A stretch of 64,000 nucleotides of DNA, from positions 1 through 64,000 of the forward strand of contig JBCBZT010000021.1 in NCBI GenBank assembly GCA_039815185.1, given 5' to 3'. A program made the position numbers and the translations under genes. This stretch comes from Cyanobacteria bacterium P01_A01_bin.123 (lineage in GTDB: Bacteria > Cyanobacteriota > Cyanobacteriia > Phormidesmidales > Phormidesmidaceae). This document shows positions 43,466 to 48,612 of the stretch, one piece after another. Below the pieces are notes generated by a model. It worked only from the letters and a program-made list of their open reading frames with translations, made no database searches and was not told the origin of the DNA. Position 1 is the first letter of the stretch. Each line of letters starts with the position of its first letter.

Positions 43466-43890
43466 GCCCATCAGGTCAGTCAAGTGATTGATCAGGCTGG
43501 CTACCCAACGGTGGCCTGACTGGCACACTAGAGACCCATGTCATGATTAACCCGGTCACCCCTGAACCGAATAAAGGGTAGTTCAGGCTAGACTTATCCC
43601 TAAGCGAGCGATGGGGCACACACGATTTTCAGCTGTGGATGCAGCATTCAGAGTTTAGGGTCGGTGTGTCAGGGGAATGCTAACGCTAGGCAATCATCAG
43701 CCCCACCCATGCTTGAGCTAAAAAAGCCATCGTTTTTTGCTGGATAGCAACGCTTAAGCTCGAAGAAGGTAGAACAACTCCATACCTTCATCACTGGCTT
43801 TGACCGCTGGCCATTATTGTGGGTTAAACACAAATCTCCTAGTGAAACGGGCTTTGTAAGCCAAACCCTCTCTCCCTTTGCTTGCCCAAC

Positions 43891-46302
43891 ATGATGCCTT
43901 CCCGCTTTACTCAGCAGTTTCAGTCTGTGCCTACTTCCCCAGTCTTTGAGGAATCAATATTTCAGGCCTGTCTTGATAGCCTGACCGATCTCGTCTACAT
44001 CGTGGACATCAAAGGTGTCATCACTTATATCAATACCTATGGGGCTGAGCTTTTAGGCTATACCGTCGAGGAGGTTTTGGGCCTCCATTTTCTAGATATT
44101 GTGATGCCCAAAATGCGCTTGAGGGCAGGACAAGCGTTTGCCCGACTGATCGGTCGGGGTGAGTTGATTAATGAGTCCTTCCAGCTGTGCACTCGCTCGG
44201 GGAACGCTGTCCTAGTTCAGGTCAATAGTCGACGCTTGTTGCTCCAGGGTAAATTTGGGGGATTCACTGGGGTAGCGCGGGTGGTTAGTTCTACCCCTGA
44301 ACTTGAGCTGACAGCGAACGCTCCCATTGAGCCTGACACAGCAGATCTGTCTCCGCCAGCAGATCTAAAACCTGCCGTCTTGACTGCCAAGGATTCCGGT
44401 GACGATTTGTTCCGGGCCTATGTAGAAGCGGCAAACGATATTGTTTACACGCTAGATCTGCGGGGAAAATTTGCTTTTCTCAATGATTATGGCTTGCAAC
44501 TGTTTGGCTATCCTGAGCATGAAATTGTCGGTAAGTACTATCTCGATTTTGTCGCATCAGAATCTCGAGAAGCCACGGCAACAGCGTTTGCCAATTTACT
44601 CGATACGGGAGAACTCAGAGACTACGAATTTGTGATCGAGCAGGCCAGTGGCGATCGCGTTTTTTTAGAAGTTAATGGCCGCCTCCTGTATCGCGACGGA
44701 GAGCTGATCGGTGGCTTGGGCATCGGACGTGATATCACAGAGCGAAAACGGGTTGAGCAACAGCTCAAAATGTTTTCCAAAGCCTTAGATGCGGCTAATG
44801 ACAGCGCTATTATCACCGATTTGAGTGGTACCGTGCTTTACGCAAATCAGGCCACCCAGAGAATTTTTGGCTACAGTTTGACGAATTTGCTCGATCACAA
44901 CGTCAATCGTTTATATCCCAATCCAGCCCAATCTCCATGGCTGATTGAGCAGGCCAAACAAGGGGGTTGGAGTGGCCAAGTCATTTGCCAACGGCAAGAT
45001 GCTCAGATCCTCACGGCATTGGTTTCAGTCGGGCCTGTGTGTGACGAAGCTGGGGAACCGACCGCAGTGTCTATTATTTATCGCGACATCACCCAACTCG
45101 AAAACATCAAGGCTGAGCTGGCCTCAAAAAATTTAGAACTCCAGCGGGCAAATCAGCTGAAGTCCCAATTCTTAGCTAACATGTCCCACGAACTGCGGAC
45201 ACCCATGACGTCGATCTTGGGATTTTCGTCTCTTCTAGAACAAGAGATGTTCGGGCCGCTAAACGAGCGCCAAATGCTCTATGTGCAACAGATTTATCAA
45301 AGCGGCGAACACTTGTTGACCTTGATTAATGAGGTGCTCGATCTCTCCAAAATTGAGGCCGGCCAGATGGCGTTGGAGCTGGCTCCAGTCATTATTGATA
45401 GCTTGTGCCACAACGCCTTGACCATGGTAAGTGCCCAAATCACGACTAAGGGTCTAACGGTGCATCAGCATCTTGAGGAAAACTTGCCCCCTCTGATTGG
45501 GGATGAACTGCGACTGCGCCAGATGTTACTCAACCTGCTCTCGAATGCCATTAAGTTCTCGAATGAAGGGGCTGAGATCGGCTTAGAAGTGCGTCAGGTG
45601 GCTCACCAACTACTGCTGACGGTTTGGGATAAAGGTATTGGTATTCCTTCAGACCAACAGGGGGGGCTCTTTCAGCCGTTTCAACAACTCGATAGTTCAC
45701 TGTCTCGCCGCCATGAAGGGACGGGATTAGGGCTGGCCTTGACCCGTCGCCTCGCCACAATGCATGGGGGAGATGTGTCTTTAGAGTCAGTATCGGGGCA
45801 GGGCAGTCGGTTCACCATTTGCTTACCCCTAAGTGGCCCCAACGCCGGCCCCAAAGGGGGACCCTTGCGACCCAACCAGCCAGACTCCACTGTCAGCCCC
45901 TTGTTGGCAACCCCTCAGGGCCAAATAGAAGGCACTGTGTTAATCGTTGAAGATCATCCTGTCAACGCGATTCTGCTAGAGCATATGCTCACGTACTGGG
46001 GCTATGAAACCTTCCACGCCCTGAATGGGCAAATCGCGTTAGAGTGGCTCGAAACCCATCAGCCCACACTCATCTTGATGGATATCCACTTGCCAGAACT
46101 CGATGGTCTGGCGTTAACCCAGAAAATTCGCCAAAATCCCTCCTGGCAGGATATTCCGATCGTGGCAACGACGGCATTAGCGATGGATGGCGATCGCGAT
46201 CGCTGTTTGGACGCAGGGATGCAAGATTATCTCAGCAAACCGATCAACTCGATAGATTTGGTCTCCATCCTGGCAAAATACACTTGGCGTCGTGGCAGCT
46301 AG
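43891..46302 (+). CDS. Hybrid histidine kinase: 3 PAS + HisKA + HATPase + REC
   Basis: MSHELRTP, NLLSNAIKF, GTGLGL, LMDIHLP. Confidence 0.94.
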   Translation: MMPSRFTQQFQSVPTSPVFEESIFQACLDSLTDLVYIVDIKGVITYINTYGAELLGYTVEEVLGLHFLDIVMPKMRLRAGQAFARLIGRGELINESFQLCTRSGNAVLVQVNSRRLLLQGKFGGFTGVARVVSSTPELELTANAPIEPDTADLSPPADLKPAVLTAKDSGDDLFRAYVEAANDIVYTLDLRGKFAFLNDYGLQLFGYPEHEIVGKYYLDFVASESREATATAFANLLDTGELRDYEFVIEQASGDRVFLEVNGRLLYRDGELIGGLGIGRDITERKRVEQQLKMFSKALDAANDSAIITDLSGTVLYANQATQRIFGYSLTNLLDHNVNRLYPNPAQSPWLIEQAKQGGWSGQVICQRQDAQILTALVSVGPVCDEAGEPTAVSIIYRDITQLENIKAELASKNLELQRANQLKSQFLANMSHELRTPMTSILGFSSLLEQEMFGPLNERQMLYVQQIYQSGEHLLTLINEVLDLSKIEAGQMALELAPVIIDSLCHNALTMVSAQITTKGLTVHQHLEENLPPLIGDELRLRQMLLNLLSNAIKFSNEGAEIGLEVRQVAHQLLLTVWDKGIGIPSDQQGGLFQPFQQLDSSLSRRHEGTGLGLALTRRLATMHGGDVSLESVSGQGSRFTICLPLSGPNAGPKGGPLRPNQPDSTVSPLLATPQGQIEGTVLIVEDHPVNAILLEHMLTYWGYETFHALNGQIALEWLETHQPTLILMDIHLPELDGLALTQKIRQNPSWQDIPIVATTALAMDGDRDRCLDAGMQDYLSKPINSIDLVSILAKYTWRRGS

Positions 46303-46444: not shown

Positions 46445-46480
46445 GATAAACCCCAAACTTTCAAATCGACTGTGGATTAA

Positions 46481-46543
46481 GAAAAAACCCCAGAAACCTT
46501 TCAAAAGAAAAGCTCCAGGGTTTTAATCAGGGTGCATCTACCA
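46481..46543 (-). ncRNA. nsiR1: NsiR1-like small RNA
   Basis: 5' TGGTAGATGCACCCTGATT followed by a strand-specific terminator with U-tail, about 63 nt; TCCGGA about 30-35 nt upstream. Family match is from memory of NsiR1. Confidence 0.65.
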
Positions 46544-46572
46544 CTTCACACTCCTGTTATGACGGCCAACCA

Positions 46573-46578
46573 TCCGGA
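46573..46578 (-). promoter_or_regulatory. DIF1-like TCCGGA motif at about -35 of the sRNA
   Basis: Palindromic TCCGGA at the spacing known for NsiR1 and other HetR-dependent promoters. Confidence 0.55.
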
Positions 46579-46669
46579 ATTCCTTCCCGGCTTTAAGTTC
46601 TCTTTAAGGAAGCCCGCTGATCTGGGGAAGATATAAAATGCTGATGAAGTAAAATACCCTGCGATCGCC

Positions 46670-47491
46670 ATGACCCTTGCCCAATCTCACCCGGTTACCC
46701 CGGCTCAAACGCCTTTAGCTCCAGCCGTGTATATCGTCGGGGCTGGCCCAGGAGATCCTGAATTACTCACGGTCAAGGCCCAAAAGCTTCTGATGCAGGC
46801 GGATGTTGTGCTCTATGCTAATTCCCTCGTGCCGCCCCAACTGCTGACGATCATGCGACCAGAGGCTGAGCGGGTCGGCACCGCCAATATGACCCTAGAA
46901 GCAATCTTGCCGTTGATGATAGAGCGGGTCAGATCAGGGCAATCTGTAGTGCGTCTGCATTCGGGCGATCCCAGTCTCTACAGCGCCATCCATGAACAGA
47001 TTCAAGTGCTAGCGGCGGCAGATATCCCTTTTGAAGTCGTCCCTGGCATTAGCGCTTTTCAAGCTGCTGCGGCAAAGTTAGGGGCAGAACTTACCATTCC
47101 TGGGCTAGTGCAGTCGATCATTTTGACCCGCATGAGTGGGCGTACCCAAGTCCCCCCAGCCGAAGAATTGGCATCTCTAGCGGCCCATCGTGCTAGCCTC
47201 TGCCTGTATCTCAGTGCTCGTCATGTGGAAGCAGCCCAAACCCAACTGCTAGACCACTATCCCCCAGAGACGCCTGTGGCGGTTTGTTTTCGCGTTGGTT
47301 GGCCGGATGAAAAAATTCGAGTGGTGCCTTTGTCTGACATGGCTAGTGTGACCCATAATGAAGATCTAATTCGCACTACCCTATATCTGATCAGTCCAGC
47401 TTTGGCAGGTTGTCAAGGGCGATCGCGCCTCTACAACCCGGATCACCACCATCTGTTTCGCCCTAAACCGCTCCGTAGAAATGGTAGCTAG
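46670..47491 (+). CDS. cobM: Precorrin-4 C11-methyltransferase
   Basis: VGAGPGDPELLT, VRLHSGDPSLY, VPGISAF, VGWPDE, SRLYNP. Confidence 0.95.
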   Translation: MTLAQSHPVTPAQTPLAPAVYIVGAGPGDPELLTVKAQKLLMQADVVLYANSLVPPQLLTIMRPEAERVGTANMTLEAILPLMIERVRSGQSVVRLHSGDPSLYSAIHEQIQVLAAADIPFEVVPGISAFQAAAAKLGAELTIPGLVQSIILTRMSGRTQVPPAEELASLAAHRASLCLYLSARHVEAAQTQLLDHYPPETPVAVCFRVGWPDEKIRVVPLSDMASVTHNEDLIRTTLYLISPALAGCQGRSRLYNPDHHHLFRPKPLRRNGS

Positions 47492-47621: not shown

Positions 47622-48425
47622 TTATTCACTGATGCTGTCCATCACCTGATCAATTTGAGGCTGGGTCGGGATGGGGCGATCAAAGTTGTTGAGCAAGCGG
47701 CTTTGTTGCCGCTGCTGTCGAATTTGACGGCGATTTAAACTGGCGATGCGATTTCTCAGGGCAGGCAAATCCGTCTCTCCTGCTCGTAGGCGCAGCCCTT
47801 GACCCCCTTCGAGTACTAGGGATTCGCTTTCTCCTGGTACTGTGAAGGTAATTGTGCCTTCCCAGGCCAAGATGTGAACTTCAGGCTCAGGCTCATCAGA
47901 AATTTCAATAAAAATAGTTGTCCCCCGCAACCCCGCAACCCCAGCAGGTGTGACGATTTCTGTAGGTACCTGTTTACCGGGTTCAACCCAAGCGATGATT
48001 TGCCCAGATGACAACTCCATGCGGTTGTCGGGTTGCAACACCAACGATGCATTGCCCCCAAGCCGAAAGGCTAGTCCGCTTGACAGGGCAACTTCTGCTA
48101 GGGCATCCGCTTCAGTACGCAGGATGTCACCAAAGATTAAGCCAGTCCCAACTTGGGCTTCGAGTTCTGTCTGAGTAGAGACGGACTTTACCCAAATGGA
48201 AGGCTGCTGAACTTGGGTAATGGTGGCATCGTTCTTGCGTTCTGCTTCGATGTTAGAAGTTGTTTCCGCAACGCTAGAAGTCGCGGCTGGTTCTGTCTGG
48301 GTGTCTGATGCAACAGTTGGGGTGCTGGTTTGACCAGAATCAGATTGCCCCTGACAGGCCGCAAGTGTGGTTGCCAAAATTAGAGCAAGGCTCATTAACG
48401 ATCGCGAAAACAAAGCGTAGTTCAT
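47622..48425 (-). CDS. FecR-domain lipoprotein
   Basis: Lipobox LAAC; GDILRT..AEV, FRLGGNA, TPAGVAGLRGT. Confidence 0.8.
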   Translation of the reverse strand: MNYALFSRSLMSLALILATTLAACQGQSDSGQTSTPTVASDTQTEPAATSSVAETTSNIEAERKNDATITQVQQPSIWVKSVSTQTELEAQVGTGLIFGDILRTEADALAEVALSSGLAFRLGGNASLVLQPDNRMELSSGQIIAWVEPGKQVPTEIVTPAGVAGLRGTTIFIEISDEPEPEVHILAWEGTITFTVPGESESLVLEGGQGLRLRAGETDLPALRNRIASLNRRQIRQQRQQSRLLNNFDRPIPTQPQIDQVMDSISE

Positions 48426-48612
48426 GGTTGTTTCTCCGGTAGCAGCATCACAGTCTTCAAGTCACAACAGCATCAGCAGTTGTTGATGGCACCCGCTCTC
48501 CTTACACTTCAAATCGGAAGCTTTTGGATCCGGAGCACTGGGATGGAGCCCCAAAGAGGATAATGGAAATTACCCTCATTACCCCGATGTTAACGTTTGC
48601 AATTGCCGATTT

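Follow-up and report, generated by a model that had tools for sequence, protein, structure and literature searches.

An NsiR1 small RNA gene divergent from cobM in a probably non-heterocystous cyanobacterium, with hetZ as a candidate target of its invariant 5′ end

In Nostoc, 12 copies of the small RNA NsiR1 are located upstream of hetF, and hetF (by antisense pairing) and alr3234 are its described targets (PMC9045159). HetZ has recently been shown to be a sigma factor at the center of the patterning circuit; it reads the DIF1 motif directly, with HetR acting upstream, and its consensus TCCGGA-N16-17-TGNA-N7-9-T derives from nine promoters, an nsiR1 promoter among them (PMC13342950). In the −10 element, A is tolerated for the first T, and G in the third place is not among the bases that this paper lists as tolerated. 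HetZ ChIP covers the nsiR1 array in Anabaena, and Dataset S2 records nsiR1 expression as up and its ChIP peak as down in the hetZ4-201 mutant (PMC13342950); the increased expression, which speaks against the feedback on hetZ proposed below, might be explained by a hetZ paralog or by lost pairing. NsiR1 is presented as an RNA of heterocyst formers (PMC6596454, PMC4030482), and the role of hetR and patX in heterocyst-less filaments has been called a mystery (PMC11298460). One such non-heterocystous strain, the tractable Leptolyngbya BL0902, has hetR and hetZ-patU but no nif (PMC11298460). Table S3 of PMC4734099 lists NsiR1 homologs in 38 genomes, of which 27 stand in a second column that we take to be heterocystous strains; it marks Trichodesmium, Arthrospira 8005, Oscillatoria, and Microcoleus, and RNA162 of Limnospira indica is an NsiR1 homolog (PMC8400943). 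These records mean that NsiR1 outside heterocyst formers is not new, and the surprise at a non-heterocystous host implied by an earlier note on this DNA does not hold.

The window, that is, the whole stretch of 64,000 nucleotides analyzed here, was searched by cmscan against Rfam. NsiR1 (RF02399) was the sole match at gathering score, at 46543-46479 on the minus strand (49.9 bits versus a cut-off of 39, E 7.7e-07), and the alignment was complete over model positions 1-60 of 60. The T at 46543 on the minus strand belongs to the sequence TGGTAGATGCACCCTGATT, which is followed by a hairpin and a U-run. The features of the locus are as follows.

46479..46543, minus strand: NsiR1 small RNA gene, about 62-65 nt (RF02399, full model; 5′ end placed by homology)
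46526..46543, minus strand: first 18 nt of the RNA, invariant and predicted to be the pairing (seed) region (invariance from cobM-linked copies; complementary to the hetZ leader)
46482..46524, minus strand: intrinsic terminator, a hairpin with G-U pairs plus a U-tract (fold z −4.82 on the minus strand versus −1.55 on the plus strand)
46552..46555, minus strand: likely sigma-HetZ −10 element AGGA, separated by 17 nt from the upstream TCCGGA and by 8 nt from the RNA start (from the sequence)
46573..46578, minus strand: DIF1/sigma-HetZ −35 element TCCGGA, a palindrome (from the sequence; −35 to −30 from the RNA start)
46670..47491, plus strand: cobM/cbiF, the divergent neighbor, 127 nt from the RNA 5′ end (TIGR01465, 329 bits versus a cut-off of 259.65)
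43882..46302, plus strand: PAS-domain hybrid histidine kinase, the convergent neighbor, ending 177 nt before the RNA 3′ end (ORF and profile search)

The locus is almost certainly a member of the NsiR1 family. The covariance-model match above the gathering score bears out the NsiR1-like RNA with seed, hairpin, and U-run that the earlier note had read from the letters, and its divergent cobM and its TCCGGA upstream of the RNA start agree with the profile match and the sequence, respectively. Its view that the stem works only on the minus strand is backed by folding: at −22.3 kcal/mol, the minus-strand fold (z −2.96; equaled by 2 of 200 shuffles) is far better than that of the plus strand at −11.8 kcal/mol (z −0.88; 42 of 200). 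No ORF of at least 80 aa overlaps the RNA gene, and there was no sign that the PAS-domain hybrid histidine kinase belongs to the NsiR1 circuit. With its 5′ seed, length of about 60 nt, DIF1 promoter, terminator, and multiple copies per genome, this RNA resembles NsiR1 of Nostoc/Anabaena sp. PCC 7120 as described in PMC9045159 and PMC4030482.

The promoter reads TCCGGA-N17-AGGA-N8-T, and the window holds a single instance of the pattern of promoter plus seed, which was absent from all 100 shuffles. For membership in the sigma-HetZ regulon, we looked for a genomic HetZ together with a promoter no more than two mismatches from TCCGGA-N16-17-TGNA-N7-9-T; the host encodes a HetZ of 619.5 bits (NF037963; cut-off 550), besides paralogs, and the promoter carries one mismatch. 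Among the copies with flanking sequence in the matches listed, exact TCCGGA at −34 to −36 was present in 132 of 211 and TCCGGA with at most one mismatch in 208; 200 of the copies have G at −11 and 202 have A at −9, while the G found here in the third −10 place is a minority base (16/211). The same AGGA stands in the −10 place in 6 of 19 cobM-linked copies, and a recognizable promoter is retained in 17 of the 19. Judged from these sequences, sigma-HetZ likely transcribes the copy at 46543. The DIF1 promoter of the earlier note is thus of the sigma-HetZ form and conserved across orthologous cobM loci; the HetR dependence that it gives for NsiR1 stands insofar as HetR acts upstream, but the direct reader is the sigma factor HetZ (PMC13342950). 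A bidirectional role of the TCCGGA palindrome toward cobM was rejected, as the plus strand has no NGNA −10 element at 16-17 nt. A second promoter-like site, TCCGGA-N17-TGAA, lies at window position 48534 (minus strand), upstream of a FecR-domain ORF at 47622-48425.

The earlier note had called this copy solitary, which is right within the window only: the host genome (G000) holds five NsiR1 matches above the Rfam cut-off and a sixth variant. The copies outside the window are as follows, with the neighbors on C54 and C113 named from their translations.

C17, 1-170: tandem NsiR1 pair with a 95-nt period, at the very start of the contig
C54: NsiR1 copy before ddl
C113: NsiR1 copy flanked by an ABC binding-protein gene and citrate synthase
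C115, 170500-170612 (170559): sixth, NsiR1-like variant after gatB, with a GGGG-N5-CCCC palindrome in place of DIF1

The C17 array may be longer and broken by the assembly. The HetR box has the consensus GGG-N5-CCC, and we take the palindrome of the gatB-linked copy to be such a box; another genome, G167, also has a gatB-linked copy with a similar palindrome. Unlike the 12-copy array of PCC 7120, the host copies are dispersed (opposite cobM, before ddl, and opposite the ABC binding-protein gene). The Nostoc arrangement of a tandem array upstream of hetF, with the first copy antisense to the hetF leader, was not found in the host: its hetF ortholog (C115:132537) has no NsiR1 copy upstream, in keeping with the earlier statement that no hetF adjoins this copy. 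The host further differs from PCC 7120 in lacking a HetP-family match and in its predicted target, hetZ.

The host assembly comprises 8.09 Mb in 133 contigs (GC 50.2%, completeness 99.99, contamination 5.99) and carries a nif cluster, 42 CHAT-domain matches, and, on C79, a type I PKS region of several genes. HetR was over its cut-off, and hetR is preceded by an ORF with RGSGR repeats; this 142-aa ORF (L006:2395-2823, G000:C26) has four RGSGR motifs, as a multi-repeat PatX-like protein. A second HetR-like protein (L007:1315-2247, G000:C93; 399 bits, below the 489 cut-off) adjoins an AraC-like regulator ORF. The HetF ortholog scored 689 bits, under the Nostocales-type cut-off of 1200, and the TCCGGA promoter form was also located after hetZ. 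In promoter form and in the presence of hetZ, its paralog, hetR with the RGSGR ORF, and hetF, the host resembles the sigma-HetZ, HetZ-PatU, and HetR-PatX circuit (PMC13342950, PMC7377430); it differs in that it probably forms no heterocysts and in that the accessible text of PMC13342950 describes no RNA-level feedback on hetZ. The HetP family (NF037966) had no match in the 133-contig assembly, while three of five control genomes were positive, and by the same model no counterpart of the hetP-like target alr3234 was found. The best PfaA/HglE-like match (TIGR02813) reached 380 bits versus a cut-off of 1010, which 3/3 controls of family group f22, taken as Nostocales, exceeded; PfaA is an imperfect heterocyst marker, because 5 of 41 relatives are also over the cut-off. 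The marker check proposed in the earlier note thus turned up hetR, hetF, hetZ, and nif, but neither HetP nor an HglE-like protein, and with positive controls this favors its guess of a non-heterocystous host. From gene content, the host is probably a non-heterocystous diazotrophic filament.

NsiR1 exceeded the cut-off in 35 of 41 relatives and in 35 of 150 genomes from across the phylum. HetZ (E 1e-60) was detected in exactly the same genomes, 67 of 186 distinct ones, most of the negatives being distant. HetF was found in 35/41 relatives and 34/150 phylum genomes, and HetR in 36/150 phylum genomes. In the host family, NsiR1 is present in 24/24 genomes and nifH in 7/24, which rules out that NsiR1 is tied to nitrogen fixation. 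A pattern scan of named genomes (at least 122 stretches, 80 of them titled) detected the seed in Microcoleus, Symploca, Spirulina, Chamaesiphon, Geitlerinema, Leptothoe, and Nostocales, besides two non-cyanobacterial matches that are retained in the counts. The co-occurrence of NsiR1 and HetZ across relatives and phylum, regardless of nifH, fits the older HetR/DIF1-sRNA circuit suggested earlier, and these data support that the NsiR1 circuit predates heterocysts. Previous records likewise placed NsiR1 outside heterocyst formers, but PMC4734099 and PMC8400943, in their accessible parts, give no promoter, synteny, or target analysis.

Synteny with cobM, which the earlier note had proposed to check in relatives, proved to be kept across several families. 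From 38 genomes with a cobM match, 30 cobM loci were fetched, and a divergent NsiR1 copy precedes cobM in 20 of them (19 detected by the seed, the twentieth by Rfam), at 62-288 nt from the aligned cobM start. The 5′ 18 nt were identical in 16 of 18 cobM-linked copies, and the remaining two differ at nt 1 only. When each of these 18 copies was folded into its own minimum-free-energy structure, two to five pair types occurred at each of eight stem positions; RNAalifold on a MAFFT alignment, in which the stems were unaligned, gave only a three-pair 5′ hairpin and no covariation. In L054 (G012:C1217), L119, and L146, the cobM-linked copy has expanded into an array of two to four, indicating that NsiR1 arrays arise at loci besides hetF. 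The locus is a true NsiR1 gene whose position is old and conserved, in a setting without either known Nostoc target arrangement.

The earlier note had supposed different targets for such an RNA, and sequence comparison offers hetZ as a concrete candidate. NsiR1 nt 11-18, and more weakly nt 1-8, are complementary to a site that spans from about 25 to 4 nt ahead of the hetZ GTG. Seven regulators had been chosen in advance for a pairing scan; of these, hetZ of the host, whose GTG is at C99:15093, paired at −18.2 kcal/mol. Good pairing was also predicted for hetF and the hetZ paralog but not for hetR, patX, or the second hetR, and the cobM match was the NsiR1 gene itself. The five NsiR1 copies gave net cofold energies of −10.1 to −14.2 with the host hetZ leader; four pair over the hetZ site, and the best fold of the C113 copy is in another register. 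By energy in the host alone, hetZ ranks eighth among the genes listed with the motif.

We then compared hetZ 5′ regions from 61 of the 67 HetZ-positive genomes (the host and 60 others). In the first 41 leaders, for which the pairing window was picked after the site had been seen, the mean duplex energy was −15.3 kcal/mol in 21 relatives, versus −9.5 for shuffled sRNAs (0 of 200 as good) and −10.5 for shuffled targets (0/60), and −14.2 kcal/mol in 20 phylum genomes, versus −9.0 for shuffled sRNAs (0/200); such shuffle counts overstate the case, because kin share leaders and the held-out set described below includes congeners of the first set. Twenty hetZ paralogs averaged −9.8 kcal/mol, a value reached by 76 of 200 shuffles. 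The motif RTYRGGG occurred in 14 of the 21 relatives and in 0 of the 20 phylum genomes, 8 of which had the shorter TYRGGG. A test on 20 unseen hetZ leaders was fixed before they were fetched: RTYRGGG was present in 8/20, versus 100 of 6827 (1.5%) host genes, and a duplex of −14 or lower formed in 12/20, versus 5.9% of the background and 15% of GGG-bearing leaders. Over all 61 hetZ leaders the median net cofolding energy was −8.6, versus −4.7 for paralogs and for 600 random genes. In a fixed-metric test that excluded 13 of the 61 leaders for want of a GTGG start at the expected place, nt 11-18 were matched at seven or more of eight positions in 22 of 38 leaders outside f22, versus 2.2% of the background (0 of 500 shuffles). 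None of the 10 f22 leaders, in which the site may be coding, and none of the 28 cobM leaders reached such a match. Pairing by nt 1-8 peaks at one register and is weak, being equaled by 104 of 2000 shuffles outside f22 and 36 of 2000 within it. Of the 25 leaders that carry the core motif, 14 have A and 11 have G opposite U15; either base can pair with U, though the motif itself admits only A or G there.

In three genomes, in-frame stops 15 nt ahead of profile residue 1 show that the hetZ site is non-coding. About 60 nt ahead of HetZ profile residue 1, a TRTGYTA element recurs that is, by consensus, presumably an extended −10 box; the hetZ leader would then be about 35 nt long and include the site. 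A HetR box was rejected as the source of the motif, GGG-N5-CCC being found in 2 of 61 upstream regions and away from the site. The site is absent from some genera, represented by L325, L377, L329, L379, and L378, though the NsiR1 seed is unchanged there. We found no report of NsiR1-hetZ pairing in a literature search that ran without Ionescu 2010, Du 2012, and Brenes-Alvarez 2020, whose target lists, or the hetZ start site, may bear on novelty. As the family and its range are already known, what would be new here is the conserved complement to the NsiR1 5′ end that these alignments point to in the hetZ leader.

The mechanism that we propose is a feedback loop. Sigma-HetZ would read the TCCGGA promoter and NsiR1 would be transcribed; the hetZ mRNA would carry a leader of about 35 nt from its extended −10 box; the invariant NsiR1 5′ end would base-pair over the ribosome-loading region of this mRNA; and the duplex would lower hetZ translation, giving negative feedback of NsiR1 on its own sigma factor. 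We infer transcription, promoter reading by HetZ, the hetZ leader, the duplex in vivo, and reduced translation alike from sequence, and regard pairing with the hetZ leader and negative feedback on hetZ translation as evenly balanced between true and false. Known sRNAs that repress their own activator are OmrA/OmrB, acting on ompR-envZ, and Qrr, acting on luxO; as in these cases, a regulator-induced sRNA is here predicted to pair with the mRNA leader of its regulator. More tentatively, and with doubt prevailing, feedback on HetZ could be the ancestral, phylum-wide job of NsiR1, with the HetR-box copy as a feed-forward arm, a circuit older than both heterocysts and nitrogen fixation to which the hetF and alr3234 targets were added later.

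A rather unlikely alternative is that sigma-HetZ-driven NsiR1 acts in trans elsewhere (on cell division, hetF, or others) and that the hetZ motif is conserved for ribosome binding or as a protein site. The loss of the hetZ site in several genera is in its favor, and so is G167, which has HetR, lacks HetZ and HetF at the thresholds used, and keeps nt 4-18 intact in its gatB-linked copy, so that hetZ cannot be the sole reason for seed conservation. Known NsiR1 copies also have distinct targets (PMC9045159), and a weak, post hoc excess is seen in hetF leaders that lack a cis copy: nt 11-18-type matches of at least seven of eight occur in 7/31, versus a 4.9% background (0 of 500 shuffles), and in 0/19 leaders with a cis copy. 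Pairing of hetF in trans is strong in the host and its congener only, with a weak excess overall (mean −11.0 versus −9.1; 4 of 200 shuffles), making hetF, from these predictions, a weaker second target candidate. Against action elsewhere, the enrichment is specific to hetZ when compared with cobM and with the hetZ paralog, and the motif goes past GGG, taking in TC on the upstream side and often T on the downstream side. A Shine-Dalgarno element at long spacing could account for the GGG core, but the core lies at least 16 nt from the GTG, and usual Shine-Dalgarno spacing is shorter. For the preferred reading of feedback on hetZ, this leaves hetZ as probably one of several NsiR1 targets.

The conserved placement beside cobM could instead mean that this copy works in cis as an antisense RNA to a long 5′ leader of cobM, much as NsiR1.1 does with hetF in Nostoc, tying cobalamin synthesis to the HetZ regulon. 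Divergence from cobM in 20/30 loci of several families agrees with this, as does the finding that the commonest genes upstream of 152 NsiR1 loci are divergent (hetF 21, cobM 9, ABC binding protein 8). We consider it improbable, since it requires a cobM leader longer than 127 nt, and TAnnnT boxes at 46634 and 46650 near the cobM start suggest a short one (a sigma-70 scan upstream of cobM gave no full promoter). Moreover, the spacing varies from 62 to 288 nt, the copy is missing from 10/30 loci, and a perfect cis antisense needs no invariant seed common to dispersed copies. A very improbable reading makes the copy a relic, silent or redundant, behind a weak promoter: the minority G in the third −10 place and the further copies in the genome would suit a relic, but TCCGGA is exact, the spacing correct, and seed and terminator are intact, and AGGA recurs among the cobM-linked copies, 17 of 19 of which keep a recognizable promoter. 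If feedback on hetZ is true, models of the patterning circuit would gain, in a conserved sRNA brake on hetZ, an inhibitory loop that they lack, and the pairing would partly explain the fixity of the 18 nt of NsiR1 across the group; without the hetZ link, the locus would be an ordinary additional member of a known family.

Other targets were sought in the host genome. The 7-nt seed match occurs in 416 of 6860 called genes, and a single-genome target scan was too noisy to use, 35 genes reaching −20 kcal/mol versus 12.5 ± 7.8 for 20 shuffled sRNAs. The hetZ paralog was rejected as a target, its site in the host being within the coding region and unconserved. A receiver-like gene on C119 was not established as a target: in a wider window, the leaders of 7 of 23 homologs reach −14, but at scattered positions. 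This gene (G000:C119:83623-84168, L240) encodes a receiver-like protein of 181 aa, and its leader carries two separate near-perfect NsiR1-seed half-sites.
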